From contig CAWBVY010000006.1 of the NCBI GenBank assembly GCA_963792415.1, forward strand, positions 320,001 through 384,000: a DNA stretch of 64,000 nt, read 5' to 3'. Both the position numbers and the translations under genes were made by a program. Below, one piece after another: positions 10,245 through 36,775 of the stretch (positions are counted from its first letter, which is position 1; every line of letters starts with the position of its first letter). The notes under the pieces are model-generated. The model was not told the origin of the DNA, searched no databases, and saw only the letters and a program-made list of their open reading frames with translations. Origin of the DNA: Candidatus Deferrimicrobiaceae bacterium. Its GTDB lineage: Bacteria; Desulfobacterota; Deferrimicrobia; Deferrimicrobiales; Deferrimicrobiaceae.

Positions 10245-10386
10245 GACCTGATCCCCGATATTTGACCAACTGGAGACGGGGATTTTCCCCTGCCGACCAC
10301 AAGACGGTCACAAGCTCCAGTCGCTGACTGGAAATTCTTCCAGACAAGGGAACTTATAGGATTCGACCTTCGGGGTGGTTTCCCGA
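10245..10386 (+). repeat. Boundary repeat copy A: IS3-like end, GGTCACAA-type tandem repeat and tRNA-Met-derived core site
   Basis: About 130 bp aligns with 24705..24834. Ends GACCTTCGGG-GTGGTTT-CCCGA, matching the tRNA anticodon arm layout (GACCTTCGGG-TTATGAG-CCCGA). Confidence 0.8.
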
Positions 10387-10417
10387 CCAGGTGTCTGCGA
10401 AACCAGGGGAAGTCCAC

Positions 10418-12196
10418 CTATTCATCCTTGACGCAGCGAACGGATCGACCGGTCGTGATGGACGTCCAGAAATACGATCCATCAACGCCGCTATAGTTGA
10501 CATCCAGCCCTCTTCTCCATGCCTCGACGTTATTGCCGTTGAGACTGGAAGTCCAGAACGATGCCTGAACCTCGACGGAGAAGAAAACCACGTTATCCCC
10601 GCTGGGATAAAAGCCCCCGCCCGGAAGACCTTCGAAACCGGAGTCGCCGCACGGAGTCCTCCCCTGGCACAGGCCTGCCGATTTCAGCCGATCGCCGGCC
10701 GGAGCGCCGCAGAAAGTATCCGGATAATTGCCCCCCGGATACGGGGAGCAGCCACCGGGCCCGAGAGCATTCGCCAGCGTGACGTACTCGGGGTCGCTCG
10801 GGATGTGCCAACCGGAGGGACAGATGCCCCGGGACTTCTCGGTTTGCGCCCCGCACATCGCCTGGTTCCAGGTATACAGGCCTCCGTAGGTCTCACAATT
10901 GCTCCCCGAATCTTCATAGCAGAATTTCTTTATGGAGGCACAGGACGTGCCTTGCCCATCCGCAGAGGGAGTTGCGGTTCCGACATCGAGATTCCTCGCG
11001 ATCCAGCACTGGGTCCCGATCTGAACCGTGGGATAGCCCTCGCCCGCATACGTCAACACGTCGCCGCAGACCTCCCAGGGGGCCACGACGACCGTCACCG
11101 TGTACTCCTGCGTCGAGGCGTCCGCGGCCGTGACCGTGTAGACAACGGGGTTCGTGAAGTCTTGCGCCACTCCCGATGCCGGGGCGATGCTTGTCCCCGT
11201 GTGGACGATCGTCGGGACGAGCGCCGTGACAACCGTGCCCGCGGGGAGCGTCGCGTCGATCGTATGCGATGCCTCCAAGATGGTTCCCTCCGCGCCAGGA
11301 GCGGCGAAGTTGAACGTCGTAATCTCCTTGCTGCTGCTCGGCGCTACCGTGACCGTCACCGTGTAATCCTGCGTCGAGGCGTCCGCGGCCGTGACCTTGT
11401 AGACAACGGGATTCGTGAAGTCTTGCGCCACTCCCGATGCCGGGGCGATGATTGTCCCCGTGTGGATGATCGTCGGGACAAGTGCGGTGACTGCCGTGCC
11501 GAACGGCACCGTCACGGCAATCGTATGCGATGTCTCCGTAACGGTTCCCACCGCATTGTAATTTGCAAAACTGAACGCCGTAATGGCTTTGGCGGTTCTC
11601 GGCGCCACGGTGACCGTCACCGTGTACTCCTGCGTCGAGGTGTCTGCCGCAGTCACCGTATACACGACCGGATTCGTGAAGTCCTGTGCAACCCCCGTTG
11701 CGGGAAGGATGCCTGCTCCCGTATGGAGTATCGTCGGGACAAGCGCCGAGACATCCGTGCCGGACGGCACCGTCACGGCAATCGCATGCGATATCTCCGT
11801 AATGGTTCCCACCGCGTCGTAACCTGCAAAACCGAACGCCGTAATGGCTTTGGCGGTGCTCGGCGCCACCGTGACCGTCACCGTGTAATCCTGCGTTGAG
11901 GCGTCCGCGGCCGTCACCGTATATATCACCGCATCCGTAAAATCCTCCGCGACTCCGGTCGCGGGACTAATGCTTGCTCCGGTGTGGATGATCGTCGGGA
12001 CGAGCGTCGTGACATCCGTGCCGAACGGCACCGTCACGGCAATCGTGTGCGATGCCTCCGAAATGGTTCCCTGAGCAGCAGGATTTTCGAAGCTGAACGC
12101 CGTAACGGATTTGGCGTTACTCAGCGACGAATCCGAACAACCTGTCAACGTCATTCCCAGGGCCACAAAGAGAACCCCCAACAACATCCGTTTCAT
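10418..12196 (-). CDS. Lipoprotein with four ~87-aa beta-sandwich (DUF5018-like) repeats and a C-terminal FISUMP (Fibrobacter major paralogous) domain
   Basis: LTGC lipobox; repeats ending DFTNPVVYTVTAADASTQxYTVTVTVAP; YPTVQIGTQCWIARNL, YGGLYTW, GICPSGWHIPS, GRSVRCVKD. AGGAG RBS before 12196. Confidence 0.9.
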   Translation of the reverse strand: MKRMLLGVLFVALGMTLTGCSDSSLSNAKSVTAFSFENPAAQGTISEASHTIAVTVPFGTDVTTLVPTIIHTGASISPATGVAEDFTDAVIYTVTAADASTQDYTVTVTVAPSTAKAITAFGFAGYDAVGTITEISHAIAVTVPSGTDVSALVPTILHTGAGILPATGVAQDFTNPVVYTVTAADTSTQEYTVTVTVAPRTAKAITAFSFANYNAVGTVTETSHTIAVTVPFGTAVTALVPTIIHTGTIIAPASGVAQDFTNPVVYKVTAADASTQDYTVTVTVAPSSSKEITTFNFAAPGAEGTILEASHTIDATLPAGTVVTALVPTIVHTGTSIAPASGVAQDFTNPVVYTVTAADASTQEYTVTVVVAPWEVCGDVLTYAGEGYPTVQIGTQCWIARNLDVGTATPSADGQGTSCASIKKFCYEDSGSNCETYGGLYTWNQAMCGAQTEKSRGICPSGWHIPSDPEYVTLANALGPGGCSPYPGGNYPDTFCGAPAGDRLKSAGLCQGRTPCGDSGFEGLPGGGFYPSGDNVVFFSVEVQASFWTSSLNGNNVEAWRRGLDVNYSGVDGSYFWTSITTGRSVRCVKDE

Positions 12197-12520
12197 CCGT
12201 TGGCTCCTTGAATGGTTACTTGGCAACGATTTCCGAAAAAACCGTGCAGGTTCCATTGTCACGAATCCAGGGATCCCGGCCGTTCCACATTGCCATTGAC
12301 GTTGCTTATCGCGCTCACCCGTTCCTTTCTTCATTTAATTCTCCCGCCCGGATGACCTACCTGCCCTGAATCCATACCAGTTGCGAAAGGGATCTCTTCG
12401 GGTACAGGGAACTTGGCACAGGGCCAAAGTCCAGAAAACTTTCATTTGTGGCATGTTCCAACAAGAAAGGGGATGCCGGATTGTACCGGACTCTCCTGTG
12501 TTTCCACAATGTTGCCGAAG

Positions 12521-12573
12521 TAACCTGCCCCCCGTCTTATACCAAATGGACGAGGAAATCGGGGACGAGGTCA
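12521..12573. mobile_element. Collapsed mini-element with IS3-like inverted ends
   Basis: Left end TAACCTGCCCCCCG, right end CGGGGACGAGGTCA (reverse complement TGACCTCGTCCCCG). Both resemble the IS end at 32939. Confidence 0.5.
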
Positions 12574-12586
12574 AAGGCCAACAAGG

Positions 12587-13189
12587 TCACCCAGGTGGAA
12601 GATCGTAGGAAACCTTCGATTCATTTCCTTTAACAATGCCCTTCTTGATGAGCTCCGCAATGATGCGCTCTACCTCCGCCTCGGAAAGGGGGGGCTTCCG
12701 AAACCATGAGTTGATCGTGGCAGCCAGGGTTTTCCGTGTTCTGGGTTTGGCGGCGCCACTCTTCGCCAAATTGGCGATTACTGCCGAAACCCGATCAGGC
12801 GCGGACTTCGAGGTTGCCAGCTTAACAAGCGGCAACTCCAGGATGGTTTTGACTCGACTGGAGGCAATCTTCTTGCTCTTCAAGTACTGAATCAGAGGAT
12901 CAAAGCCGGTATCTTTTGAAACGATATAAAAGTTAGCGTCCGGCTCTTTTGCGGAAAGCTGACCGATGTAATAGGCGATGTGGAAATCAAGAGCGTTACC
13001 GCCGGTTCCCGCGATCTTGATGTATTTGGCTCGATCGCCCAATCGCTGCAACACCGAAGCAACCTCGTACGTCACCTTGGCCTGATTTGCGCCCACAAAA
13101 ACGATGACGCTGAAATGTTCACGCTCCAGCGCAGCCATTGCCTGAGGCTGAACATTTTCATAATCGATTAAGACGTAGGTATTTTTCAC
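12587..13189 (-). CDS. PIN-like (NYN/PIN7-type) domain protein
   Basis: VLIDYENVQ, NALDFHIAYYIG, IVSKDTGFDPLI. GTG start overlaps the upstream stop (GTGA). Confidence 0.85.
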   Translation of the reverse strand: MKNTYVLIDYENVQPQAMAALEREHFSVIVFVGANQAKVTYEVASVLQRLGDRAKYIKIAGTGGNALDFHIAYYIGQLSAKEPDANFYIVSKDTGFDPLIQYLKSKKIASSRVKTILELPLVKLATSKSAPDRVSAVIANLAKSGAAKPRTRKTLAATINSWFRKPPLSEAEVERIIAELIKKGIVKGNESKVSYDLPPG

Positions 13190-13626
13190 CGCGCAACGCT
13201 CCTCGTGGGCTCTAATTTTGTAATATCCGAGAGGAAATCTCGGGCGGCTTGCACCACTATCCCCATCGTATCCTTCGGTTTGTTCCTGTACGGGCCGAAA
13301 TGGCGTCGATCCCCCGCGAGAAAATGCGTTGCCTTGCACCGCTGTGCCGAGGCGAACACAGGCCGATCCTTCTCAGGGAGTGAAATCGTGCACCGCTCTC
13401 CAGCAACATCAGGAACAAGGTGGACTGTCTCCAGAATCTCGGCCAACCGGCCAAGAGCTGCCGGATGCTTCCTATCCAGGTTCCGTCGTGCCTCCGCAAG
13501 GCAATACGCGCTGGTCACGACCTCCCAACTCCCCGCCGCAGCCAGATCGATCACAAGCGACGCCTTCCCTTCCGGGTTGCGAGCGGCGGTGAACAGCACG
13601 TCCGAGTCCAGGAAAAGGCGTATCAA
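13186..13626 (-). CDS. VapC-like PIN-domain toxin
   Basis: RLFLDSDVL, EARRNL, KDRPVF, GDRRHF. TTG start overlaps the antitoxin stop. Confidence 0.85.
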   Translation of the reverse strand: MIRLFLDSDVLFTAARNPEGKASLVIDLAAAGSWEVVTSAYCLAEARRNLDRKHPAALGRLAEILETVHLVPDVAGERCTISLPEKDRPVFASAQRCKATHFLAGDRRHFGPYRNKPKDTMGIVVQAARDFLSDITKLEPTRSVAR

Positions 13627-13874
13627 CGCTTCCGTCCAAGCCTCTTCAGGATCCTGGACCGCTCGCCGGGAGCAAGCCGGTCTTCCCGCTCCCATCGGCC
13701 GATCTCTTCGTCCGTATAGGTGTCCAACTCCACAACGGCAGCAGGCCGAAGCACCAGTTCCCCTTTCCGGTCCTCGACAACCAGGACCCCGCCCGGCTTG
13801 ATCCCGAGGCGCCTCCGCATGGACGCAGGCAAGGTAATCTGCCCCCTCCCGGAAACGACGACATTCCCTTTCAT
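13623..13874 (-). CDS. AbrB/MazE/SpoVT-family antitoxin
   Basis: VSGRGQITLPASMRRRLGIKPGG...ELVLRP; GGAGG RBS. Confidence 0.9.
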   Translation of the reverse strand: MKGNVVVSGRGQITLPASMRRRLGIKPGGVLVVEDRKGELVLRPAAVVELDTYTDEEIGRWEREDRLAPGERSRILKRLGRKR

Positions 13875-13890
13875 AACGCGCCTCCCATCC

Positions 13891-13934
13891 GATATTCCGT
13901 AATGCAGTCTAACTGATATTCCGTATTTATGCAA
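13891..13934 (-). promoter_or_regulatory. Sigma70-type promoter of the TA operon with two direct-repeat operators
   Basis: TTGCAT-17 bp-TAGACT. TACGGAATATC occurs twice (13891-13901, 13915-13925), on either side of the -10 box. Confidence 0.7.
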
Positions 13935-14063
13935 CTGACCTGCCTGACCTGCTTCCCGGTAATCGTCCAGCTGGTCGAGGGAATTTGCGCTGGAATCCGT
14001 ACAGCTGGCAAACCTCGTGCAAACAACAATCGAGTTTTGTAACCCTATTGGTATACTTCCACC

Positions 14064-14366
14064 ATGCGTCGCCTCCTCCTGGCCCTCCTTTTTCTCCTGC
14101 CTCTCGCGCTTCCTTTGTCATGCGGCGACTCATCTGATACATCGACCATCACAGGAGATTTTGTGGTCCGCTTCGAGCAAATTGGGGGTGGATGTTGGAA
14201 CCTTGTGGCGACGGACAATACCCTCTATTTCCCCATCAACCTTGACAATGTTTATCAAATCGACGGACTTCGCGTGGCGGCATCTCTTCAGTTGCCGACC
14301 GCCCCATTCGGGACCTTTTGTCCCGGCCAACCGATGGTTGTCATCAAAATCGCACCGCTGCCTTGA
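14064..14366 (+). CDS. Hypothetical secreted protein or lipoprotein
   Basis: Hydrophobic signal peptide with PLSC; GGCW...PINL...DGLRV small beta domain. Confidence 0.7.
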   Translation: MRRLLLALLFLLPLALPLSCGDSSDTSTITGDFVVRFEQIGGGCWNLVATDNTLYFPINLDNVYQIDGLRVAASLQLPTAPFGTFCPGQPMVVIKIAPLP

Positions 14367-14651
14367 ACGCAGCCAAACCCGTTCCCTCCCAATAGGACTA
14401 TCCGAGCGGGGGACATATCTTCGGACGCCACACGGACCGTAAACCCCGTGCGTTATCTGGCCTGCTTGAGGAGTAATAGAGACATCGCCGGCAGGGTGTT
14501 GAAGAGTGAAACCCCTGATGCGGGTGGAACGATCACGGGGGCTGGTCATTCCCCTGCCCCTGGAAGCAGGTGATCGCAAGCGAGAACTGCTCGTGCGGTA
14601 CATCCACGGAACGAAGGAAACGGAATCGCACCTACGGCGGGGAGGTTGCAG

Positions 14652-15050
14652 ATGAGGCGACGGGCTTGCGTGGTGATCCTCACGGCGATCCTCGCCTGGC
14701 CGTGTCTTCAGGGGTGCGCTGAAACCGTCATAGTTGGTGGTGGTGGGAAGATTGGATCGGCAAAGGATCGTGCGCCGGTACTCGTTACGGAGAACGGAAA
14801 AGATGTGGTTGGTTGCGAGTTCATGATGAACTTTGAGCAAAGCAGGCCGTGGGGCGGGTTACTCCTTCAAGAGGATGCCATGGAAAGAGTCATCACAGAC
14901 CTTACATATGAAACAGTCGATGCGGGTGGGAACGTATTGCTCATACGGAAGAAACAAAAGGGTTTCAATGGATCATCCGCTTCAGGGGATGTCTATCGTT
15001 GCCCGGACAACAATGCTCCTGCTCCTCCCCCGCAACCGACCCCAAAATAA
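14652..15050 (+). CDS. Hypothetical lipoprotein (DUF4156-like)
   Basis: LQGC lipobox; GC..., AGGNVLLI, GDVYRCP; GGAGGT RBS. Confidence 0.65.
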   Translation: MRRRACVVILTAILAWPCLQGCAETVIVGGGGKIGSAKDRAPVLVTENGKDVVGCEFMMNFEQSRPWGGLLLQEDAMERVITDLTYETVDAGGNVLLIRKKQKGFNGSSASGDVYRCPDNNAPAPPPQPTPK

Positions 15051-15064
15051 TCGTCCCCTCACAT

Positions 15065-15131
15065 CCACCGGACAGCGGACAGCCCCGCTGGGGTGCCGTT
15101 CGAGTCCGTCCGGTTGAGCCGCGGGTTAGGC
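15065..15131 (-). other. Partial or degenerate attC site after the cupin cassette
   Basis: Minus strand GCCTAAC-CCGCG-GCTCAACCGGACGG (R'' and L''-like). The R' end is lost. Confidence 0.6.
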
Positions 15132-15159
15132 CCGACCGTGTTGGATGTCGGGCCTGAGC

Positions 15160-15504
15160 TCACTCTTGCCTGACGATATCGACCGAGATCTCCACCGCCG
15201 GAATCGTTCCCCTGTTCTCAAGCCAGTGTGTGGTGTTCCTATCCTCGGGCCAGCCCACTCCCGGCCCATAGTCCGTAGCGACTCCATTTCGATGGTCAGT
15301 GATCGTTCCTTGCAGTATATAGACGGTGCCTGGTCTGCCTTTGTGGTCGTGAATCGGGCCGAAGACGCCTCCAGGCTCGAAGGTCACCATACGCATTCGA
15401 AGTTGGCGCCCTGCCATGCCCTCGATCTCAGGGCCAAGGTCAACCGATGCAAGCAACTTCACCGTTACACCTTTCGTCTCAGGTGCCACCTGTTCGTTGC
15501 TCAT
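15160..15504 (-). CDS. Cupin domain protein (integron cassette gene)
   Basis: EPGG...HDH...GTVYILQG...THWLENRG. The RBS lies just after the GTTAGGC core site. Confidence 0.9.
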   Translation of the reverse strand: MSNEQVAPETKGVTVKLLASVDLGPEIEGMAGRQLRMRMVTFEPGGVFGPIHDHKGRPGTVYILQGTITDHRNGVATDYGPGVGWPEDRNTTHWLENRGTIPAVEISVDIVRQE

Positions 15505-15530
15505 CGTGCTCTCCTCTCTGTAGTTCCAGG

Positions 15531-15605
15531 GCCTAACGCTCAGGCTGAGCTGCGGGCGCTCAGCGAAACTCACGGCGAGCCGTCAGCTTCAGCCTGTGGT
15601 TAGAC
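15531..15605 (-). other. Complete integron attC recombination site (75 bp)
   Basis: Minus strand GTCTAAC-CACAG-GCTGAAGC-TGACGG...CCGCA-GCTCAGC-CTGAGC-GTTAGGC: RYYYAAC/GTTRRRY boxes, 5/6-nt spacers and two unpaired bases on the left arm. Confidence 0.9.
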
Positions 15606-15681
15606 AGCTTTGTTATGATCTGAAATTGTCACCTGCATGCCAAAGCCGGGAAACTGCAGCGTACAGACTGTCCACTCACCT

Positions 15682-16053
15682 TCACCAGGTTTGAGTAGCA
15701 GAATCGATGGTAACGGCCAACGTGGCTCGCAGCCAACTGTATTTTGCTTTCATGAAATCAAAATCAGGTCCGGATGTTATAAAGGTCCCCTTTCCCTTGA
15801 TCAAAAAGCCGGCACCTGCTCCGTGCAAGCCCTTGACCTTGCTGCTTCCCAGCGTAATCAGCACATCAGGGTTGTGGGCAACGTTAACCTCTGTCTTATT
15901 CATGTATCCCGCAGGAATGAACAACCGCCCGTCCGGTGATATCCTGAGGTAGCTATTCCAGGTGTTGACCATATGCGGCCCATCCTTTCCCAATGTCGCA
16001 ATGGCAACAACCCCATCCTGTTTCATGATTTCCAGCAGCTTTTCCGGGATCAC
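15682..16053 (-). CDS. FMN-binding pyridoxamine 5'-phosphate oxidase family protein (cassette gene)
   Basis: GVVAIAT...PHMVNTWNSY...IPAGYM...G.GFLIKG. GTTAGAC core site at 16092-16086 upstream of the RBS. Confidence 0.88.
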   Translation of the reverse strand: MIPEKLLEIMKQDGVVAIATLGKDGPHMVNTWNSYLRISPDGRLFIPAGYMNKTEVNVAHNPDVLITLGSSKVKGLHGAGAGFLIKGKGTFITSGPDFDFMKAKYSWLRATLAVTIDSATQTW

Positions 16054-16162
16054 CGTGACTACCTCCCTTTTTCGTTTGTTGTTCTGTCTAACAGTTGATC
16101 AGACAAATGAACGTGAATTCTCGTGGTCACAATTTGGACAGAAAAAAGTCACAAGAATTTTC

Positions 16163-16205
16163 AAAAATAAAACACCCACCGGGTTGTGGATAACCCGGTG
16201 GGTGT
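16163..16205 (-). terminator. Rho-independent terminator
   Basis: 14-bp perfect stem ACACCCACCGGGTT/AACCCGGTGGGTGT followed by a T-rich tract on the minus strand. Confidence 0.75.
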
Positions 16206-16307
16206 ATTCTCCTCTTCCAATCGACGGACGATGTAACCCCGAGGTATCCCAAGAACCGATATCCTGGCGCCCCCGAAATTCTCGAATCCTTCGCTTGAAT
16301 AGAACGT

Positions 16308-16613
16308 TTATGCTGTTCCTCCTACCGGGAGATCCCGGAAGGCTTCGTCCGTGATGCGGTCCAATCTCGTCACCTGCATCCCCGATTGCGCTGCCGTCAA
16401 CCGGGCGAGGATCTCCGGGTTCTGCGTGTGGATTGAGTCCAGCAGCCCGCACAACTCCGGCAACTTCCCGGAGACGACTTGCGCGATGCTGCCGCCGCAG
16501 TCGAGCGAGATGATGATGGAGTGCCCGCTGTCGGGCGCGACGGTGCTGACGGTCCCATCCTTGTGTGTTATGACGATCTTCTCGATGGATTTATTTTTCG
16601 TCATGATTTGCAT
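16308..16613 (-). CDS. Hypothetical protein
   Basis: 101-aa ORF with a purine-rich RBS and a downstream terminator. Confidence 0.55.
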   Translation of the reverse strand: MQIMTKNKSIEKIVITHKDGTVSTVAPDSGHSIIISLDCGGSIAQVVSGKLPELCGLLDSIHTQNPEILARLTAAQSGMQVTRLDRITDEAFRDLPVGGTA

Positions 16614-16876
16614 CCTTTCCTCTCAATTTCTCGCGCTATTTGGATGCTCTGCTCATACTTATGGTTCCGCCTGCAGCAGAACCCGTCCCATCTATCGAAG
16701 AAGAACTCGATTGAGATGATGGAGCGGTTGTCGGACCGCAAGTGGCGCGAACCGCTCGGGCGGGACATCTTCGGAAGGAAGGAAGGAAGCGGAACAGCCC
16801 CCAAAATACCATGAGCGCCGTCTCTATCGCTGCCGCGACGATCAGGAGAGGAAATATAACGGTGGGTGGAAAACGA

Positions 16877-16908
16877 GGCGAGCCGTCGGCTTCAGCCTGT
16901 TGTTGGGC
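16877..16908 (-). other. Truncated attC site (left half only)
   Basis: GCCCAACAACAGGCTGAAGCCGACGGCTCGCC is nearly identical to the left half of attC 15531-15605. Confidence 0.8.
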
Positions 16909-16955
16909 GGCAATTATTACGGCTTTGAAAAATTAGGGGCCGCATATTGACGACT

Positions 16956-17963
16956 CTAGGAAGCGATTATGCCTTGGCCAGAACTTAGTATTCGTGCGGC
17001 CTCTTCGGCCATTGTATGCACAATTTCTGCGGCTGGTTGGATACGGGACGCCAAACCGACGCTCTGTCCGGCATATAAACACATGGACTCCAACTGTCCG
17101 ATCGCACCCGGTTCCGGATAGGATGCTTCGTAGCGTCTTATTAAGTTTCCATCACCATAAGTTCCTATCACTTCGCTTTCATTTGGACGGTGGCCTCTCG
17201 GCGGATTTCCAGCTGCCTCCCATTGCTCAATCGTGTCATTACGCAGCGATCGATGGGGAGAATCGGGCCATCCAATGTCAAATAAAGTCGAATACACTGC
17301 ATCGGTTTCTGCGGCTTGTAAGAGCTTCTGTTGATATACAGTGTGAATTACAGCTTCTTCGCTCAACAAGAAGCGTGTACCCACCCATACGCCGGCTGCT
17401 CCCAGCATCAACGCGGCAGCAACACCGCGTCCATCAGCGATACCACCTGCGGCAATGACGGGTTTCGGGGCGACCGCATCCACCACGCGGGGCACCAACG
17501 GGAAGGTAGCCACCTTTCCCCATACATGTCCGCCCGCCTCCCAACCTTGAGCGACAAGAATGTCCACCCCTGCCTCACTGGCAAGGCAAGCCTCGGCTGC
17601 GCTTCCAATCGTGTGCATGACCAATGCCCCCGCAGCATGAACACGCTCGATATATTTTGATGAGTCACCATAGAAAAAAGAAATGATGGGCACGCCTTCT
17701 TCCAAACATATCGCCAGTCGTTCATCTTGCGGCCATGCCAACACCAGATTGACTCCGAAAGGACGACTGGTTAACGAACGGGTCTTGCGGATAACTTGGC
17801 GAGTGCTTTCCAGATCGCGCCATGTTGCGGACAGCATCCCTAACCCACCCGCATTGGAAACAGCCGCCGCCAATTCCGGACTTACGGCATTCGACATCGG
17901 GGCCAGGATGATCGGTATGTCGATATTCAGTAAACGAGTCAAGGAGGTCTGAAATTTCAGCAT
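16956..17963 (-). CDS. Nitronate monooxygenase / 2-nitropropane dioxygenase family flavoprotein (cassette gene)
   Basis: PIILAPM, AAVSNAGGLG, AQGWEAGGH, AAGGIADGRG, GTRF, YAGQSVG. GTTGGGC core site at 18010-18004. Confidence 0.92.
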   Translation of the reverse strand: MLKFQTSLTRLLNIDIPIILAPMSNAVSPELAAAVSNAGGLGMLSATWRDLESTRQVIRKTRSLTSRPFGVNLVLAWPQDERLAICLEEGVPIISFFYGDSSKYIERVHAAGALVMHTIGSAAEACLASEAGVDILVAQGWEAGGHVWGKVATFPLVPRVVDAVAPKPVIAAGGIADGRGVAAALMLGAAGVWVGTRFLLSEEAVIHTVYQQKLLQAAETDAVYSTLFDIGWPDSPHRSLRNDTIEQWEAAGNPPRGHRPNESEVIGTYGDGNLIRRYEASYPEPGAIGQLESMCLYAGQSVGLASRIQPAAEIVHTMAEEAARILSSGQGIIAS

Positions 17964-29518: not shown

Positions 29519-29592
29519 CGCGAACGGCTCGGTGAAACGAGCGATCCGTAAGGATCCAGCGTCCACAGGATCGAAGCCCGCGTCGCGGAAAC
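29519..29592 (-). pseudogene. Fragment of an F420-dependent NADP oxidoreductase-like gene
   Basis: Translation RDAGFDPVDAGSLRIARFTEPFA resembles the family C-terminus. Isolated fragment. Confidence 0.55.
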
Positions 29593-29614
29593 GGATGTCG
29601 ATGTCCCGGTCGGA

Positions 29615-30514
29615 CTAGACCAGCGAATCCTTGTCGAATCCGATCCGCACGATCTCGATCTTCGCCGGATCCGCCGTTCCCAGATGGTGCCGCGTATCCG
29701 CCAGCGCGATGTGCTTGGCCGGAGGCGCCAACGGCCGCTCCTCGCCGAAGACCGCCCGGCGCTTGGCTTCGATGATGCGCAGTCCCACCGAATCGCATGC
29801 CACCGGGTCGAAACCGACAATGAGTCCGTGGTAGTTCCAAACGTACTTCGGGTTGAAACTATGAGGCCCCACACCGTGGAACTGCGGGGAGAGCATGACC
29901 AGCACGTTCAGGCGGGTCTTGCCTTTCACAATGGGGAGGCTCCAGACCCCGCCGAGGTCGGCGCAGGAGTCGTCGTGCCAGGAAGAGGGGATCGGCGAGA
30001 AGAGGATGTAGTTCTTGATGAGCGAGCCCACGCCGGACCAGTGGTGTGTGCGCATGGGCCGGGTGTTGATCAGGGCCGTGGCGCGCTGGAATACCGGATT
30101 ATCCAGCACGCCGCGGTCGTTGATGGCGACGTTCTGCGCCTTGACGCCCACTTCGCGCACGCGCTGCTCGAGCGCCGATTCCACGGCCGCAGGCGTGGGG
30201 AGATACGACCAGGAGTTGCTCTTGATGCCGACGATGTCGCTGGGCTTCAGGAAGGTCTTCCATCCGTCGACGCCTTTCTTGCCGGTGAGCGATCCCACGG
30301 CGGCGTCGAGCATCTTCAGTACGATGTCCTTCCTGGCCTTTCCATTCTCGTCGAGGGCCATCTGGTCGCGGACCAGGATCACCCTCGTCTTGGCGGGAGT
30401 GGCAGCTTCCGCGGCAATTGCGTCGTGCATCCGGCCGGGAAAAAGCGCCGCGCCGCCCAACGCGACCATCGAGAGGTTGAACTGCCGGCGCGTCAGTCCT
30501 TTTTTCGAATTCAT
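29615..30514 (-). CDS. Tat-exported DUF362-like protein
   Basis: TRRQF Tat signal; D.VGIK.N, .THHW.G....KN, FDPVACD. Confidence 0.8.
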   Translation of the reverse strand: MNSKKGLTRRQFNLSMVALGGAALFPGRMHDAIAAEAATPAKTRVILVRDQMALDENGKARKDIVLKMLDAAVGSLTGKKGVDGWKTFLKPSDIVGIKSNSWSYLPTPAAVESALEQRVREVGVKAQNVAINDRGVLDNPVFQRATALINTRPMRTHHWSGVGSLIKNYILFSPIPSSWHDDSCADLGGVWSLPIVKGKTRLNVLVMLSPQFHGVGPHSFNPKYVWNYHGLIVGFDPVACDSVGLRIIEAKRRAVFGEERPLAPPAKHIALADTRHHLGTADPAKIEIVRIGFDKDSLV

Positions 30515-31401
30515 GGCACCTCCAAGAGCACCCGGTCCACGATCTGTCGAGACGATGCATCCAGTGCGATGACGATTCTTTTCCCGCTTCTCTTGAGTCC
30601 CGCCCAACGCTCGCCCATCCTTGCCGAAGCCGTACCGCCCAGCACGGTTTCGGTGAAGGCGCGCTGTGCCTTCTCGGCGTCGTCTTCGGTCGGGTAGTCG
30701 ACCAGCATCAGGACGTGCCGCTCGCCCTGCCGGACGTAGCGGGCCAGTACCGCCTCCGTTTCCTTCCCGATCCCCAGCGGGTTCTCATGGGAAACGGTGA
30801 CGTAGTCGTTCTGCAACAGGGGGTGGTGGAATGTGCGGGCGCTGGCCTCAACGATTCCCGTTCCTGGAAGCGCGGCGAGGATGGGGGGCAGCGAGCCGGT
30901 TTCGGGGATGAGCGCGGCGATCGACCGTCCCAGTTCGTAGATGGCCTTGCGCTTGGTCTCTGTTTCGGGGTAGCCCAAGATCGAGACGTACCAGCGGTGC
31001 TTCCAGAAGGTCAGCAGACCGCCGCCGTAATCCGACCCCTGCCCGACCTCATCGGCCAGGGTCTCGCGGCCGTGGGCGAAAGCGCCGAACGCGCCGCGCG
31101 GGCTTCCCATGTCGAAGATGTCGACCTTGATCGTGTCGTCCTCGCCCGCGGCGTATTCAAAGGTGATTGCGCCCACGAAGTCGAAAGCGAGGTAGAGTTC
31201 CGATCCGCCGTCGATGTAGCTGTAGAGCGTATCGCGGCTGTAGAGCGCCGGTTTGTCCGGCTTCTTCCATTGGCCGACCCGGGTGGGCAGCCCGGCGGCA
31301 AAGTCGGGTTTCGGTTCGTCGGCGAAAGCCATGGTCCACACCAGCGTCAATGACATCGCCGTGGCGAAAGCCACGGGAAGTATCCCGTTCCCTTTACGCA
31401 T
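30511..31401 (-). CDS. Secreted hypothetical protein (DUF6599-like)
   Basis: Signal peptide; LYSYIDGGSELY...DIFDMGSPRGAFG. Coupled to the DUF362-like gene. Confidence 0.75.
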   Translation of the reverse strand: MRKGNGILPVAFATAMSLTLVWTMAFADEPKPDFAAGLPTRVGQWKKPDKPALYSRDTLYSYIDGGSELYLAFDFVGAITFEYAAGEDDTIKVDIFDMGSPRGAFGAFAHGRETLADEVGQGSDYGGGLLTFWKHRWYVSILGYPETETKRKAIYELGRSIAALIPETGSLPPILAALPGTGIVEASARTFHHPLLQNDYVTVSHENPLGIGKETEAVLARYVRQGERHVLMLVDYPTEDDAEKAQRAFTETVLGGTASARMGERWAGLKRSGKRIVIALDASSRQIVDRVLLEVP

Positions 31402-31591
31402 TTTTCCCCATCTCGTACGCCTGTTCCATCGCCGGACGTCCCTTGATGTCGCCTATATTCCAGGCCCCGGTCCCGCAGATGACCCCCTGATGTCCCGCCT
31501 CCCTGGCCCCGAGCAGGAACTGGTCGCACAGCAGGTCGGAATTCCCCCCTTTCCTCGGGCTTGCCGACAGGACCAACATTTTTTTCGCCAT
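31394..31591 (-). pseudogene. Flavodoxin-family (NADPH-dependent FMN reductase-like) gene with a large in-frame internal deletion
   Basis: N-terminus SASPRKGGNSDLLCDQF..GA.EAGH is joined directly to the C-terminus GTGAWNIGDI...AYEMGK. Only 65 aa. Confidence 0.75.
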
Positions 31592-31628
31592 CTTATCATC
31601 CTCTTCTTTTTGAAAATTTGCTCTTCTG

Positions 31629-32585
31629 TCAAAAATCAAGCAGCAGCCTGCCGCCGCCAACCAGCGGACTCGTGAATCCGTTCTCTCGAAGGGCATACCA
31701 GAGGGTCACTGTATTGATGCCGAGGATCGGAATTCCGATGATTGGCTCGAGTTTTTCGCAGAGGTTGATCAGGCTCATATTCGTACCGCACTGAACAATT
31801 GCATCCAATTTGTTGTCCGCGGTCGCAAGCAGCTCCATGATGGCCTTTTCTTTCGCCCAGTCCGGGATATGGGCAATGTGAAGTGCATTGGCGCAGGAAA
31901 AGCCTGCTGTTGAAACCACCCGAAAACCCAAATCCTCGAACATCCGCGCGGCGCTCTCATTCCCCAGTTTGTCAAATGGTGTTAAGAGTCCGATTCGTCT
32001 TGCGCCGAATTTTTTCAGAGCCGCCGGGGCCGCATCATGCCAAGTGGCCCAAGACAGGCCGGAGTAGGCCTCAATGTCCACCATCGGCGCTCTTATTTCA
32101 TCGATGCCCACAAGGATATGCTCCAGGCTCATGCCCATGATCATGTATTGCGGCTCCGCCAACAAAGCCGCACCCACCGCTGACCTTAGCCCGCCCAAGA
32201 ACTGATTCTTGTACTCCATCAGATCTTCTTCGGTCTCCAACTTCGGCTTCGGCGTCAAAACGTTGGTGGTGTGAAGGCCGACCCCTCTTAGCCCGTGTGG
32301 TCCTTGGTTCTTGAAGATGATGCTCCAAAGTTCGTGCTCCATGCTGGTATTCGTAGCGGGAATAAGAAGCCCAAACTTTCTTCTGAAACTCCTCACGTCG
32401 GGATATCCCCTGGAAGAGTTGATCTCGCCGAAGTTCTCGGCTTTCTTACCATTGTGAACGACGCCGGGAGGCGCCAGAGCGGGCATGGGCGGGACATTTA
32501 CATTGGGAATGGTGATTTTTCCCCCGGACAATTCACCAATAATAGTCTGTGCTCCTATGTAGTTTATTTTCTCGTGTTCATTCAT
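31629..32585 (-). CDS. Maleate isomerase / arylmalonate decarboxylase (Asp/Glu racemase-like) family protein
   Basis: FGLLIPATNTSME, RIGLLTP, DAIVQCGTN, E..IGIPILGIN...W.ALR. Confidence 0.8.
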   Translation of the reverse strand: MNEHEKINYIGAQTIIGELSGGKITIPNVNVPPMPALAPPGVVHNGKKAENFGEINSSRGYPDVRSFRRKFGLLIPATNTSMEHELWSIIFKNQGPHGLRGVGLHTTNVLTPKPKLETEEDLMEYKNQFLGGLRSAVGAALLAEPQYMIMGMSLEHILVGIDEIRAPMVDIEAYSGLSWATWHDAAPAALKKFGARRIGLLTPFDKLGNESAARMFEDLGFRVVSTAGFSCANALHIAHIPDWAKEKAIMELLATADNKLDAIVQCGTNMSLINLCEKLEPIIGIPILGINTVTLWYALRENGFTSPLVGGGRLLLDF

Positions 32586-32798
32586 TCCCTTGCTCCTCGT
32601 GGGTTTACAAGGATTTTCTCAAACTAAATCGTGGCAACCCAATCCAAAATTGCCATCCCGGATTTTTCGATTCCGATGGTTTCGCCAATATGCCCCTATA
32701 TAAAACAAGGCCTCTCGGTTCCTGATTGAAGTCTGTTGCAGGTAGGATGTTCCGCCAGACCCTTTCGTTCTCTCATTGGCGCACAAAGGGAAACCCCG

Positions 32799-32845
32799 TT
32801 TTTCACCCCGAAACGACCATTGTTTGCAAGGGGTTTGCAGTCCGT
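32799..32845 (+). repeat. Boundary repeat family B, copy 2
   Basis: Matches 22700..22747. Confidence 0.75.
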
Positions 32846-32871
32846 GCGGACTTTCCCCATCAAACCTTCCA

Positions 32872-32934
32872 CCGCCTCGAATCGGCCTGAAAAGCATTAA
32901 CACACCTCGGACGGATCTGATGGGGGCAGATCCA
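32872..32934 (-). mobile_element. Degenerate inverted copy of the 70-bp MITE
   Basis: The reverse complement contains the same spacer CGAGGTGTGTTAATGCTTTTCA with eroded arms. It abuts the IS3 left end. Confidence 0.75.
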
Positions 32935-33018
32935 CGGTTGACCTGATCCCCATTTCTTAGACACTTCCAGGGTTATACTTCCGGCTGACTTTTCCGGTCC
33001 CGACCCTAGGAGGGCACG

Positions 33019-33282
33019 ATGAAGAAGCGGTTCACGGAGGAGCAGATCGCCTTTGCCTTGCGCCAGGCGGAAGGAGGCACCCCGGTTACCGAGGTGTGCC
33101 GCAAGATGGGGGTCAGCGAGCAATCGTTTTACCGTTGGAAGCGCAAGTACGATGGGATGGGTGTCGCCGAGCTCCGCCGCTTGCGGCAACTCGAGGAGGA
33201 GAACCGGAAGCTGAAGAAGTTGGGGGCGGATCTGGCGCTGGACAAGCACATTCTCCAGGAGGTGCTGCAAAAAAAAGTATAA
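33019..33282 (+). CDS. IS3 transposase OrfA (HTH)
   Basis: MKKRFTEEQI...VCRKMGVSEQSFYRWKRKY...LRQLEEENRKLK; A8G slippery site at 33269-33277. Confidence 0.95.
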   Translation: MKKRFTEEQIAFALRQAEGGTPVTEVCRKMGVSEQSFYRWKRKYDGMGVAELRRLRQLEEENRKLKKLGADLALDKHILQEVLQKKV

Positions 33283-34127
33283 GGCCGGCACGCAAGCGGT
33301 CCCTGGTTCAGGATGTACGGGCCGCGTACAAGCTCACGATGAGGCGTGCGTGCCGGCTGATCCAGATCCCGCGGCCGACGGCGTATTACCGGAGCCGGAA
33401 GAAGACGTGGAACGAATTGCGGATCCGGATGAGAGACCTGGCGGCGGTTCGAATTCGTTACGGCTATCGTCGATTGCACGTCCTGCTTCATCGGGAGGGA
33501 TGGAAGGTCAATCATAAGCTTGTTTGGCGAATATATCGGGAGGAAGGGCTCTCCATACGGACGAAGGGGAGGAAGAAGAAGATCAGCCGGCTCCGGGTTG
33601 TTCTTCCGGAGGCAAAGGCACCAAATGAGCGCTGGAGCATGGATTTTGTCTCCGATGGGCTCTTCACTAGTCGCCGATTCCGGGTCTTTACGTTAGTGGA
33701 TCACTTTACGCGTGAGAGTCCGGCGATCGTGGTGGACCATTCGATCCCCGGGAGCAAGGTCGTCGAGGTTCTGGACCGCCTGGCGGGACTTGGAATCAAG
33801 CCCAAGGTCATCACGGTGGATAACGGCCCGGAGTTCTCGGGCAGGGTCTTGGACGAGTGGGCACATCGCAACGGAGTGAAATTGGACTTTATCCGGCCGG
33901 GCAAGCCGGTGGAGAATGCATACATCGAAAGCTTCAACGGGAAGCTGCGGGAAGAATGTCTGAATCTGCATTGGTTCAAGATGATCGAGGAAGCCAAGGA
34001 AAAGATCGAATCTTGGCGGGTCGACTACAACGAGCACCGCCCGCATAGCGCATTGAACGACCAAACACCGTCGGAGTTCGCCGAGAACTTCGACCTATCC
34101 CGGGCCGTCGAAAAGGTCGGATTTTAA
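33270..34127 (+). CDS. IS3 transposase OrfB (DDE), expressed by -1 frameshift
   Basis: YGYRR, WSMDF, DNGPEF, PGKPVENAYIESFNG, YNEHRPHSAL. Confidence 0.95.
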   Translation, partial: KKSIRPARKRSLVQDVRAAYKLTMRRACRLIQIPRPTAYYRSRKKTWNELRIRMRDLAAVRIRYGYRRLHVLLHREGWKVNHKLVWRIYREEGLSIRTKGRKKKISRLRVVLPEAKAPNERWSMDFVSDGLFTSRRFRVFTLVDHFTRESPAIVVDHSIPGSKVVEVLDRLAGLGIKPKVITVDNGPEFSGRVLDEWAHRNGVKLDFIRPGKPVENAYIESFNGKLREECLNLHWFKMIEEAKEKIESWRVDYNEHRPHSALNDQTPSEFAENFDLSRAVEKVGF

Positions 34128-34321
34128 CCTTGGAAAGTGTCGAAGAACGGGGGGACCCTCAATCCCAACGTTGATTCCTCTTTTATTGGCCGTCATAGGG
34201 GGCGCGATGCTCCCAATTCCATAACCTAGGATTTTCTGCCAAACCCCAATTGGGAAATATGAGATGCCTGGGACTTCGATTGCTGTTGGGGATATTGTTG
34301 GGGGTGAAGTATTTCGGACAT

Positions 34322-34361
34322 GAAAAAGGGGGTCACGATTTCTCGTAACCCCCTGTTTTTA
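34322..34361 (-). terminator. Hairpin terminator after tRNA-Met
   Basis: GGGGGTCACGA-TTTC-TCGTAACCCCC stem flanked by A and T tracts. Confidence 0.75.
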
Positions 34362-34363
34362 TT

Positions 34364-34440
<77 letters not shown>

Positions 34441-34534: not shown

Positions 34535-34951
34535 TCATTCCTGAGCGCCGGCACCTCCACGAACCATGGTCCAGAAACCACGCGGATCCACGATCGGAAT
34601 CGGCGACTGTGATGCCACTTCCAACAGATCGGAATCGCCGGTCACGATAACATCCGCTTTCCCCGCCACAGCCGAAGCAAGGACCCATCGATCATCTGGG
34701 TCCCGAACCGGTAAGGGATGCGGCTCCGATGGCTTTGGGACGACGATCTGATCCCGTAATAATTGCTCGATAGCCGTAACCACAGGAGCTGGAACTTTGA
34801 TGCGGTCTCGCAGAACCCGGCGGAGCTCAATGATAACGACCTCACCGGTGATCAGGTCGTGCTCCGCCAGGATATGTCGAAGGACATCCGCGCACAAGCC
34901 GCGAGTGGCGAAAGCGCTCACAAGGACATTCGTGTAGAGAAAGACCCTCAC
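34535..34951 (-). CDS. PIN-domain toxin with the first catalytic Asp replaced by Tyr
   Basis: VRVFLYTNVLVSA (family consensus LDTNVLVSA), EL..VL, RDPDD, IVTGDSDLL. GTG start overlaps the antitoxin stop. Confidence 0.85.
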   Translation of the reverse strand: MRVFLYTNVLVSAFATRGLCADVLRHILAEHDLITGEVVIIELRRVLRDRIKVPAPVVTAIEQLLRDQIVVPKPSEPHPLPVRDPDDRWVLASAVAGKADVIVTGDSDLLEVASQSPIPIVDPRGFWTMVRGGAGAQE

Positions 34952-35169
34952 GAAAGGGCCTTGTTCACATCCTCGTCCGTGAGATATCCCCGCGCTTCCG
35001 CAAAAGGCAGGACCTGCCGGCGCAGTTGCTCGAAACGGATGATCGACAAATGGCGCTTGAGCGAGTCGCGGACTATGTCGCTTCTCGTACGGCCCGACTG
35101 CTTGCAAACCTTGTCGAGCAGCTTCTGGAGGTCCGGCTCTATGCGAATTGTAACGGCTGAAGTTTTCAT
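34948..35169 (-). CDS. Ribbon-helix-helix (CopG-like) antitoxin
   Basis: VTIRI...LLDKVCKQSGRTRSDIVRDSL...GYLTDEDV. Confidence 0.88.
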   Translation of the reverse strand: MKTSAVTIRIEPDLQKLLDKVCKQSGRTRSDIVRDSLKRHLSIIRFEQLRRQVLPFAEARGYLTDEDVNKALS

Positions 35170-35287
35170 GTCATACATTGTATGTCGTACATCGACAGCA
35201 TGCAAGAGGCTAATTATCACCACGGTTTAGGAACACCCCATTCCGAAACCGGGATAGACGGGCACGGTAATTGAACTTTTCAACGGC

Positions 35288-35716
35288 ATGATCGAGAAAT
35301 CGGATCCGCAATCCGACACATCGTTGTCACGCCTTCAGGTGGAATATATTCCCGGTCGGATTCTCACCATCCGTGGCCATCGGGTGATGCTGGACGTTGA
35401 TCTTGCGAAACTCTTCGGTGTCACAACCAAACGGCTAAACGAAGCAGTTCGAAGGAACACGTCTCGATTCCCGCATGATTTCATGTTTCAGCTGGCCCCC
35501 GGTGAATCCGAATCTTTGAGGTCGCAATTTGCGACCTCAAACGGGCGAGGCGGACGCGGCGAAATTCGATGGGCGCACACAAGGAATTCGCTAGGACGTT
35601 GGAAGGATCTTGAACGGAAATACGCGGCGCACGACACACAGATCAAGGGAATCTTCGACGCGCTACGAGCACTCATGGAACCCCCGAAGACGCCGCGGAG
35701 GCGGATCGGATTCTGA
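35288..35716 (+). CDS. ORF6N-domain protein, apparently internally deleted
   Basis: IRGHRVMLDVDLAKLFGVTTKRLNEAVRRN..RFP.DFMFQL and C-terminal RRRIGF. The usual PYAFTEQG segment is missing. Confidence 0.8.
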   Translation: MIEKSDPQSDTSLSRLQVEYIPGRILTIRGHRVMLDVDLAKLFGVTTKRLNEAVRRNTSRFPHDFMFQLAPGESESLRSQFATSNGRGGRGEIRWAHTRNSLGRWKDLERKYAAHDTQIKGIFDALRALMEPPKTPRRRIGF

Positions 35717-35752
35717 TCGTTTCCCGAATGAACCTGGTCCGAAATCCGGAGG

Positions 35753-36775
35753 GTGGCGGCAATGCGTATCGATCAACGCGGGAAATCGAATTCCATCAAG
35801 GATCTGCTGGTCAAGATCGCCAGGCGGGAGCACTTGGAGATCTTCGAAGGGGACTCTACTCCCTTTTCCGTTTACGCATCGGCCTGGCTGGAGAGGAAGA
35901 AGGCGACCCTTGCCCGCTCCACCTATGGCGATTATCGTTCGATCTGGAAGAAATATGTCCTCCCCCACTTCGGGAACATTCCGCTATGCCGGGTGACGAG
36001 GCGCGACGTGGAAGCGTTCCTCGACAACCTCCCGGAGATCTCCGCGAAGCGGAAGAACAACATCATGGTTCCGCTGAAGTGTCTCTTCAACGACGCCAGC
36101 CGGCGCGGAGAGATCGACGAGCCCCCCTCCGAGAACATCCGGCGCTTAAAGGAAATAAAGCCGTTCATCGATCCCTTCTCCTTCAGTGAAATGAAGCTTC
36201 TCCTGGAACACGTCGATCCCCATTACGGGGCGTATTTCACGACCGCGTTCCTGACGGGGATGCGGCCCAACGAGATGATCGCGCTCAAATGGTCCCAGGT
36301 GGATTTCGAAATGCGGTGCATCACCGTTCGGGAAGGCCGCGTCCTTGGAATCGAAGGACCGCCCAAGACGATGTCTTCCTATCGCGACATCGACATGCTC
36401 GATCCCCTCTTCGAGGCGCTGCGGAAGCATCAAGAGGGGGCTCGACCGGGATCGACGTACGTTTTCCCGGGGAAAACCGGCAGGCCGGTCGAAGTCAACA
36501 ACCTTCGGAAACGGGTCTGGTATCCCGCGATCGCCGCGGCCGGGTTGCGCCGGCGCACGATGTACCAGACGCGGCACACCTTCGCGTCGCTCATGCTTGG
36601 CCACGGCGAGGATCCGCTCTGGGTGGCGCGCATGCTGGGACACGCCGGCCTGGACATGATCTTCAAACATTACGGGAAGTTCATACGGAACCGCTCCCGG
36701 AAGGACGGTGGAAGGTTTCTGGAGGGGCTGAAGGAGGCGGAGGCTTTCCTGCAATCGGGCAGGCGGACAACCTAA
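35753..36775 (+). CDS. Phage/ICE-type tyrosine integrase
   Basis: TGMRPNE (R), PPKT (K), YQTRHTFAS, MLGH, KHY catalytic set; SAM-like core-binding domain; short N-terminus. Confidence 0.93.
   Translation: MAAMRIDQRGKSNSIKDLLVKIARREHLEIFEGDSTPFSVYASAWLERKKATLARSTYGDYRSIWKKYVLPHFGNIPLCRVTRRDVEAFLDNLPEISAKRKNNIMVPLKCLFNDASRRGEIDEPPSENIRRLKEIKPFIDPFSFSEMKLLLEHVDPHYGAYFTTAFLTGMRPNEMIALKWSQVDFEMRCITVREGRVLGIEGPPKTMSSYRDIDMLDPLFEALRKHQEGARPGSTYVFPGKTGRPVEVNNLRKRVWYPAIAAAGLRRRTMYQTRHTFASLMLGHGEDPLWVARMLGHAGLDMIFKHYGKFIRNRSRKDGGRFLEGLKEAEAFLQSGRRTT

Follow-up and report, generated by a model that had tools for sequence, protein, structure and literature searches.

How did copies of the anticodon arm of a single tRNA gene come to stand, mostly in one orientation, between small groups of genes? 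We address this question for positions 10245-36775 of a 64,000-nt stretch of DNA (G000:C6:320001-384000; the whole stretch is referred to as the window) from the genome G000 (2.84 Mb in 11 contigs) of an uncultured sediment bacterium, using a set of 28 genomes of its genus for comparison. The interval belongs to about 64 kb of hypervariable, low-GC DNA, at whose end stands the sole initiator-tRNA gene; this variable region has a G+C content of 51-62%, compared with 65-70% in its flanks, and to its right lie housekeeping genes (DHDPS, ScpB/RluB, XerD, MutS, aroA, and tyrA). The region was probably built by tandem accretion of modules, most of them lacking an integrase, at attachment (att) cores derived from tRNA-fMet. 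The original prediction, made from the letters alone, had read the interval as an integron-like capture platform served by a fixed integrase on the other side of the tRNA, and overall this interpretation is partly supported.

The tRNA gene, its core motif and the 10.6-kb insertion

The argument starts from the following features:

34364-34440, minus strand: initiator tRNA-Met(CAT), the sole tRNA gene in the window (ARAGORN and Rfam)
34392-34408, plus strand: the core GACCTTCGGG (34392-34401) and the 7-nt anticodon loop TTATGAG; tRNA fragments in congeners stop at 34408, and public contigs diverge past 34401
34311-34400, plus strand: tRNA-proximal copy of a 90-nt direct repeat (terminator hairpin and tRNA 3′ half)
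23724-23813, plus strand: distal copy of the 90-nt direct repeat, 92% identical, ending in GACCTTCGG and marking the far end of a 10.6-kb insertion
23265-23684, plus strand: pterin-4a-carbinolamine dehydratase gene, a conserved array neighbour in G011 and G035 and the neighbour of the tRNA in a public contig
18048-18057, minus strand: inverted core, intergenic, between an NMO and an MR_MLE gene

Among the three CAT tRNAs of the genome, only the one at 34364-34440 has initiator features (the first base pair does not form, and three G-C pairs lie at the foot of the anticodon stem), and it is therefore the sole initiator tRNA of the genome. It was also the sole match in Rfam at gathering thresholds, where no known RNA family accounted for the repeats described here. 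On the plus strand its anticodon arm reads GACCTTCGGG-TTATGAG-CCCGA from 34392, just as first noted, with the 10-mer GACCTTCGGG corresponding to the 3′ strand of the anticodon stem and the variable loop.

We found seven exact copies of GACCTTCGGG in the window (at 10365, 24822, 28233, 28264, and 34392, and on the minus strand at 18048 and 44461); the mean in 100 shuffled sequences was 0.45 and the maximum three, none of the 100 reaching seven. The 9-mer occurs 11 times in the window, versus 1.45 expected. The motif positions given in the original prediction are correct, including the near-copies GACCTTCGG at 23805 and ACCTTCGGG at 27313, and so is its caveat about housekeeping genes in the case of tyrA, where a copy at 60403 lies inside the prephenate dehydrogenase gene. 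Genome-wide there are 56 copies of GACCTTCGGG in 2.84 Mb (1.26 per 64 kb), and G000:C6:290000-354401 holds 12 of them, where 1.02 are expected from the remaining genome (Poisson P ~1e-9), which bears out the enrichment over background that the platform idea implied. Ten of these 12 copies are on the plus strand and two on the minus strand (binomial P 0.019). According to the gene content of the region (from Pfam searches of overlapping open reading frames (ORFs) on both strands), all of the copies listed above are intergenic between Pfam-supported genes except that at 44461. The other genomic copies lie almost all in G+C-rich coding DNA (judged by eye from the sequence context); few of the 44 copies outside the region appear intergenic by eye, namely C1:342296 and a cluster at C6:899247-900346. 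The first of these is a low-GC, apparently intergenic core, 2 kb from DNA resembling the ORF6N region described below (C1:344418-344884), and may be the trace of a further small island.

With a tolerance of one mismatch, we count 15 co-oriented intergenic cores from G000:C6:305142 to the tRNA (window coordinates -14858, -13100, -11777, -10291, -6403, -3835, -476, 5733, 10365, 23805, 24822, 27312, 28233, 28264, and 34392), and neither Pfam-scanned ORFs nor tblastn revealed an integrase between them. Inverted copies lie at -28012 and 18048, and one further site, with a two-mismatch core of the R-type introduced below, lies at about -29496; co-oriented cores extend beyond the interval and the window, leftward to about G000:C6:290,500. 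The cores are often found 22-44 nt beyond a stop codon. They had been presented as isolated half-sites, which does not hold throughout: the copy at 23805 ends the 90-nt tRNA repeat, and those at 10365 and 24822 terminate a 133-nt repeat element (R-type).

The two copies of the 90-nt repeat are the mark that an element classically leaves on integrating into a tRNA gene; here they enclose an insertion of 10.6 kb (23814-34310), with the tRNA at one end and the direct repeat of the tRNA 3′ part at the other. We also searched public sequencing runs: 20 of the 24 runs listed contain part of 23600-33500 (best share of sampled words, 0.67), and contigs from four runs were compared with the window. A contig of one of these runs, X2, represents the empty site, since it joins 23699 directly to 34324, and DNA therefore exists in which the pterin-4a dehydratase gene abuts the tRNA. 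G011 and G035 have different arrays, of 35 kb and 33 kb, respectively, which run from the tRNA to the same pterin gene. In addition, four contigs of X2 and two of a second run, X12, match the tRNA through 34401 and then diverge.

Fragments of the tRNA 3′ half recur in tandem in the genomes of the genus, and their ends are uniform at 34408, the last base of the anticodon loop. For example, G038:C1 contains at least five such fragments, 0.9-15 kb apart, and G005:C59 contains three within 5 kb. Exact cores are likewise clustered, with nine in 80 kb of G038:C1 (seven on one strand) and 10 in 60 kb of G035:C2 (eight on one strand).

Site types, shared arms and modules

Apart from the tRNA fragments, the cores in the interval belong to several kinds of site:

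24705-24834, plus strand: R-type site, composed of a hairpin, GGTCACAAGACGGTCACAA, a spacer of about 47 nt, and the core at 24822-24831, followed by GTG
10245-10377, plus strand: second R-type site of the window, 83% identical to 24705-24834, with the core at 10365-10374 followed by GTGGTTT-CCCGA
27234-27321, plus strand: GCGGTGGAA twice and the core variant AACCTTCGGG (27312-27321), 27 nt past the stop of a NERD-domain gene; the right arm is common with G038 (80%)
28152-28242, plus strand: S-type site, a conserved leader of the NERD gene with the core (28233-28242) as its end; in several genomes the NERD module has its right boundary here
28264-28362, plus strand: core and right arm (GAACGGACCC...), which match the arm behind a tRNA fragment in G011:C5 at 90% identity

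R-type relatives are present at four more places in the genome and in five congeners, and the S-type arm with its core is also found at C6:308223 and twice in G035. The 7-nt spacers go with the type of site (TTATGAG in the tRNA, GTGCGCA in six of 11 aligned R-type sites, YGGGATG in S-type sites), and some sites of congeners are perfect palindromes ACCTTCGGG-N7-CCCGAAGGT.

As had been proposed, the 10-mer acts like a core shared by integrase attachment sites. We compared the arms on its two sides and the points at which homology stops. Among 146 ACCTTCGG sites from the region and congener loci, 252 pairs share the left arm only (mostly tRNA-like arms), eight pairs the right arm only, and 89 pairs both. 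In 230 pairs sharing the left arm, homology stops 0-3 nt past the 10-mer in 127 and at 7 nt in 61 (188 of 230 together), which fits strand exchange within the 7-nt segment of the anticodon loop. Right arms are shared in the same manner: the match between 28264-28362 and the arm behind the tRNA fragment of G011 begins at the core, the left sides being unrelated, and the site at -476 has a right arm in common with G011:C16:400754 from 7 nt past the core, again with unrelated left arms. The right boundary of the NERD module falls inside the core or the 7-nt spacer in G035 (two copies), G018, G011, G015, and the second copy in G000. Taking all 128 distinct homology end-points, eight lie at most 5 nt from a core, versus 0.73 expected, and 13 lie at most 20 nt away, versus 1.49 expected, under a null of uniform placement.

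The spacers and upstream repeats are also as first described, with GGTCACAA-type repeats at 10298-10320 and 24752-24770 and two copies of GCGGTGGAA from about 27234. The genome contains 22 copies of GGTCACAA, eight of them in this 70-kb region and all eight on the plus strand. In G011, an integrase gene (int2, see below) and a tRNA-fMet fragment flank the tandem repeat TTGGTCACAATCTGGTCACAAAC, at a place where arm-type sites would be expected, and the corresponding place in G035 carries TTGGGCACA twice. Similarly, among 94 distinct GACCTTCGG sites, seven carry GGTCACA[AG] at most 160 nt to the left of the core, where 0.007 would be expected per site. The same tandem repeat beside the integrase gene of G011 makes it plausible that the GGTCACAA repeats are arm-type sites, as had been suggested.

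Several smaller observations concern these sites. The hairpin of the R-type sites is a 48-nt element (ATCCCCG ... CGGGGAT) found in the window at 10245-10292, 24705-24752, and 13946-13993, and elsewhere at G000:C6:316115-316155, C6:546318-546362, C9:49298-49344, and C1:189998-190044. Two of its copies stand directly upstream of genes for envelope proteins (YkuD/SPOR and Adhesin_E), and in G038 it accompanies the Adhesin_E gene and not the remaining R-type site; it may be a gene leader or a regulatory element. The spacer GTGCGCA follows the core at 24832-24838 and recurs in R-type sites of G005, G018, G016, and G011. The sequence GGTGCGCA presumably resembles the start of the XerC arm of the dif site, and a XerD gene is located at 45759-46745. 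Finally, the core has TTTGGGCACAG about 10 nt to its left at G035:C2:79460, in G005:C59 (L017 8135 and 9834), and in G011:C5 (L010 18878), and the inverse of that sequence, TGTGCCCAAA, about 30 nt to its right at the sites of G035 and G005; judged from this layout, with arm sites placed symmetrically, they resemble a small element's attachment site in intact form.

Between co-oriented cores we found one to three genes, mostly on the minus strand, in agreement with the modules first proposed:

8796-10229, minus strand: YkuD/SPOR gene, flanking the R-type site at 10245-10377
10418-12334, minus strand: DUF5018 surface-protein gene, on the other flank of the same site
24058-24663, minus strand: Adhesin_E-domain gene, the single gene between the cores at 23805 and 24822
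24860-25606, minus strand: DUF169 gene, adjoining the flavin reductase gene here and apart from it in G038 and G011
25677-26300, plus strand: flavin reductase gene
27348-28148, minus strand: NERD-domain gene, a one-gene module between two co-oriented cores, with a paralogous module at G000:C6:307321-308232
28353-32585, no single strand: genes carried by the tRNA-proximal module, among them a Sel1-repeat gene (28353-29435, plus strand) and an Amdase-like gene (31629-32585, minus strand)
33096-34127, plus strand: IS3-family transposase, within the tRNA-proximal end of the island

The Adhesin_E, DUF169, flavin reductase, NERD, and other segments are separate and reordered in G038:C1, G035:C2, G011:C16, and G002:C4 (75-95% identity). 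In the second copy of the NERD module, no core was found between its two genes.

The modules also contain repeats of other kinds. In-frame tandem repeats are found in the DUF5018 gene (four 261-nt units, 11079-12161) and the Sel1-repeat gene (84-nt units, 28953-29372). A near-perfect palindrome of about 60-70 nt at 28361-28434 and 32872-32932 has many copies across the genus and the genome, a dispersal like that of repetitive extragenic palindromic (REP) sequences, and contigs of X12 have joints at it (for example, 28413 to 32822, and strand-switch joints). The repeat family TGTTTGCA..GGGGTTTGCAGTCCGT is found at 21457-21488, 22694-22754, and 32792-32852, and inverted at 14427-14451; contigs of both X2 and X12 join 21489 to 22696, omitting the 1206 nt between two of its copies, and these repeats form boundaries of another kind between modules, with no relation to the tRNA core. 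A further element (120-170 nt, at 26312-26480), with a sharp right end at 26480, is shared with at least 10 genomes of the genus and with G000:C6:306551-306692 (92%).

The integrase beside the array and competing explanations

On the other side of the tRNA lie three genes that bear on the question of which enzyme acted:

34535-35107, minus strand: PIN-domain toxin-like gene, between the tRNA and int1
35288-35716, plus strand: ORF6N-domain protein gene, upstream of int1
35753-36775, plus strand: tyrosine integrase gene (int1), on the 5′ side of the tRNA and outside the array

The product of int1 matches the phage-integrase catalytic domain (PF00589, 69 bits versus a cut-off of 27.1) and has a SAM-like N-terminal domain; by eye, its catalytic R, K, H-x-x-R, H, and Y line up with those of solved integrases. 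The genome has no second member of its family, and the other tyrosine recombinase in the window is XerD (352 bits versus a cut-off of 329.6). The original prediction had likened the system to integrons, and on this point it fails for the enzyme, which falls far short of the integron-integrase models (TIGR02249, 38 bits versus 265; PRK15417, 18.4 bits versus 435). The gene lies 1.3 kb upstream of the 5′ end of the tRNA, with the PIN toxin-like and ORF6N genes intervening (the ORF6N domain is typical of DNA-binding proteins of mobile elements). The island itself lacks an integrase, and G000 has none inside the island beside the tRNA-proximal att site. The ordinary layout is seen in more distant homologues, where a tRNA gene on the opposite strand starts at most 170 nt past the integrase gene in 18 of 32 loci, and in int2 of G011 (71% identical to int1), which sits in the ordinary position beside the tRNA, as in G035; int2, an element-borne relative, is found in G011, G035, G032, and G002. 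We looked for a tRNA remnant 3′ of int1, the ordinary position, by aligning 36776-37700 locally to the att region, and rejected it (noise scores of 24 and 27).

The claim of a fixed integrase across the tRNA stands for part of the genus. In the 28 genomes, int1 is open, at least 86% identical, and in the same place in 12 and cut by contig ends in three, whereas it is broken or truncated in G038, G012, and G010 and was not found in nine, four of which are at least 97% complete. The ratio of nonsynonymous to synonymous substitution rates (dN/dS) among eight open orthologues is 0.17-0.30, indicating purifying selection; given the open frame and this ratio, int1 is probably functional where intact. 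Arrays exist without int1, as in G038, which has a large array despite its broken or truncated copy. The int1-PIN-ORF6N block is missing between the tRNA and the flank in G006 and G009 (breakpoints 34498 and 37647). One X12 contig joins 34483 to 35259, skipping 775 nt with the PIN toxin-like gene, and this gene is therefore variably present beside the tRNA.

The explanation that we consider probable is repeated site-specific recombination by tyrosine integrases that would cross over at the anticodon stem and loop of the tRNA. GACCTTCGGG would be the sequence common to all attachment sites, and strand exchange would take place within the next 7 nt. Elements inserting into the tRNA would bring a copy of its 3′ half, by which the essential tRNA gene would be rebuilt, and would leave a tRNA fragment at the far junction, a pattern with which the 10.6-kb insertion is consistent. 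Modules with R-type or S-type sites, which have no tRNA part, would insert harmlessly only into cores already in the array, which could therefore grow internally. The outcome would be a co-oriented string of one- to three-gene modules, mostly without integrases, resembling cis-mobilizable remnants. The order of these events, the acting integrase (the resident int1 or its element-borne relatives), and any present mobility are what we infer from the comparisons; the element-borne integrases of congeners would suffice to explain the accretion.

A number of observations weigh against this explanation. In G035, the pterin gene directly precedes core genes that are found at C6:271-279 kb in G000, so that about 64 kb of the variable region of G000, including 10245-23200, lies beyond the pterin gene; insertion at the tRNA alone does not account for the cores to the left of that gene. 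The idea of serial stacking behind the tRNA accordingly loses the half left of 23265, which the conserved pterin gene separates from the tRNA-proximal island. The 7-nt spacers are unlike between sites, and classical tyrosine integrases do not tolerate unlike overlaps of this kind. The genes of the region are mostly on one strand, and any gene-linked repeat would therefore also appear co-oriented. The proposal that the sites are module boundaries agrees with the shuffling of modules among congeners, but 120 of the 128 homology end-points lie more than 5 nt from any core, and the 11-fold excess near cores, obtained with uniform placement, would shrink to perhaps 2-fold with an intergenic-only null. 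For example, the DUF169/flavin reductase boundary (about 25620-25640) separates in other genomes without a core, the homology to G018 passes through the core at 24822 and breaks 40 nt to its left, and many of the modules recur in G011:C16 and G002:C4, where exact cores number only one or two. In the contigs of the four runs we saw no circular junction or excised form of any small module, and the joints listed from them included none between two non-tRNA cores; contigs drop rare forms, so the missing circular junctions carry little weight against excision.

The unlike spacers are, on the other hand, what would be expected of a resident capture platform, in which int1 actively inserts and excises promoter-bearing modules of one to three genes at the tRNA-derived core, tolerating mismatched 7-nt overlaps, as a double-strand analogue of the integron. 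The position of int1 upstream of the tRNA, its difference from the ordinary layout, its conservation in 12 of 28 genomes under purifying selection, and its being the sole family member in a genome whose array has no other integrase are all in favour of such a platform, as is the presence of the Tn1549 integrase among the nearest solved structures (with a weak E-value of 3e-6). The Tn1549 integrase tolerates heterology in the overlap. Nevertheless, we regard the platform as unlikely: int1 is missing from nine genomes and damaged in three, including G038, whose array is among the largest; the int2 relatives sit in the ordinary position with arm repeats; the score of int1 against the integron-integrase model is far below the cut-off; no excised form was seen in the public contigs; and the int1-PIN-ORF6N block, absent from G006 and G009, itself resembles an inserted mobile remnant. 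Quite unlikely is the wider proposal that a vertically kept int1 and the tRNA anticodon arm form a chromosomal gene-capture platform of the genus, in which R-type and S-type sites of about 60 nt (ending in GACCTTCGGG and a variable 7-nt overlap) would play the role of attC and an enzyme tolerant of overlap heterology would insert, excise, and reshuffle modules from one core to any other. The data can be explained without an integron-like platform.

The non-tRNA 10-mers could also be the ends of ordinary intergenic repeats (leaders, promoters, hairpins, or REP-like elements) that have a stable hairpin-forming sequence in common and no connection with recombination. We find this very unlikely, although R-type and S-type elements do stand directly upstream of minus-strand genes (YkuD, Adhesin_E, and NERD twice), several copies form stem-loops of ACCTTCGGG-N7-CCCGAAGGT, a one-strand gene bias would account for the co-orientation, synteny end-points are mostly away from cores, and the region contains other, unrelated repeat families. 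Ordinary repeats leave it unexplained that at least four unrelated left arms (a GGGCACA-type, R-type, S-type, and the tRNA 3′ half) share one 10-mer as their end, at the position where tRNA fragments stop, that right arms are swapped from the core onward, and that the arm repeats of R-type sites are identical to those beside the integrase gene of G011. R-type sites are also found downstream of plus-strand genes and are therefore not consistent leaders, and few intergenic copies were seen by eye among the 44 outside the region. A scan of 23600-28500 gave four promoter-like sites (3.4 in shuffles) and six terminator-like sites (6.7 in shuffles), with none of either at the cores except a terminator within the tRNA fragment, and the cores were accordingly rejected as terminators, the scan being at shuffle level and without terminator-like sites at non-tRNA cores. 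Chance recurrence of a short G+C-rich word is hardly credible: such words do recur, and the 9-mer is found inside housekeeping genes as well, but none of the 100 shuffles reached the observed count, the Poisson test against the genome rate refutes it, and the flanks of the sites are shared.

Relation to known islands and gene-capture systems

In integrons, the recombinase gene lies at one end of a string of small co-oriented modules, each ending in a repeated recombination site, and the attC sites are imperfect palindromes with conserved AAC/GTT ends. The locus described here is similar in having a recombinase at the end of co-oriented modules with repeated, site-like ends, and in an array that differs between relatives. 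It differs in its anchor, which is a tRNA gene, in that some modules have genes on both strands, and in the ordinary element-borne integrases of congeners; no attC-type palindrome with AAC/GTT ends was seen by eye in the aligned R-type sites. A second comparison is with the cis-mobilizable elements (CIMEs) of the ICESt1 type, which Pavlovic et al. reportedly described in 2004 as integrase-less DNA flanked by functional att sites, in tandem with an integrase-bearing element and maybe mobilised in trans. Accretion of this type is said to involve two or three large elements at the 3′ end of a protein gene, with mobility shown by experiment, whereas here there are about 15 small modules, known from sequence alone.

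Tandem accretion at the att sites of RNA genes is a known way of building islands. In the accessible part of their article, McMurdie et al. (2011; PMC3146451) describe tandem ssrA islands of Dehalococcoides, with several modules that lack an integration module and that they suggest to be cis-mobilizable and joined by accretion. As at our locus, the 3′ end of an essential single-copy RNA gene is directly repeated many times (over about 100 kb downstream in Dehalococcoides), and these repeats bound tandem islands in a region of high plasticity. According to the same part of the article, the recombinase there is a serine recombinase (DsiB, CcrB-like), island-borne beside attL, and the repeats are a uniform 20-bp piece of ssrA; here the enzyme is a tyrosine integrase, whose only copy in the genome lies outside the array across the tRNA, and most sites consist of 10 nt of tRNA with unrelated arms. 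The tycheposons of Prochlorococcus (Hackl et al., bioRxiv 10.1101/2020.12.28.424599), as far as the available part of the preprint describes them, integrate at the island-proximal tRNA and push older material inward; their islands likewise contain scattered partial tRNAs and degenerated elements, with neighbours separated by a partial tRNA alone. The same part of the preprint indicates that tycheposons carry their own integrases and hallmark replication genes and have circular forms detected by polymerase chain reaction (PCR). We compared them with the present locus by their model of island growth; the modules here are smaller, and no counterpart of the R-type and S-type non-tRNA sites is described in that part of the text. 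Judged by titles and the beginnings of abstracts, none of the listed papers on Deferrimicrobium deals with this locus, and our literature search found no description of a tRNA-fMet array with an external integrase. Small modules, non-tRNA arms on a 10-nt core, and the integrase across the tRNA stand out as distinctive here.

The locus shows how, in a little-known genus of uncultured sediment bacteria, much of the flexible gene pool is assembled at a single essential tRNA gene. Its cargo comprises enzymes of the cell envelope, NERD nucleases, PIN toxins, and small metabolic genes. The array supplies concrete types of site (tRNA fragment, R-type, and S-type) and a candidate pair of enzymes, the resident int1 and the element-borne int2. 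If the resident integrase is active on unlike overlaps, this would be a new gene-capture system outside integrons; if it is not, the array would be a further example, in a new lineage, of island growth by tandem accretion.

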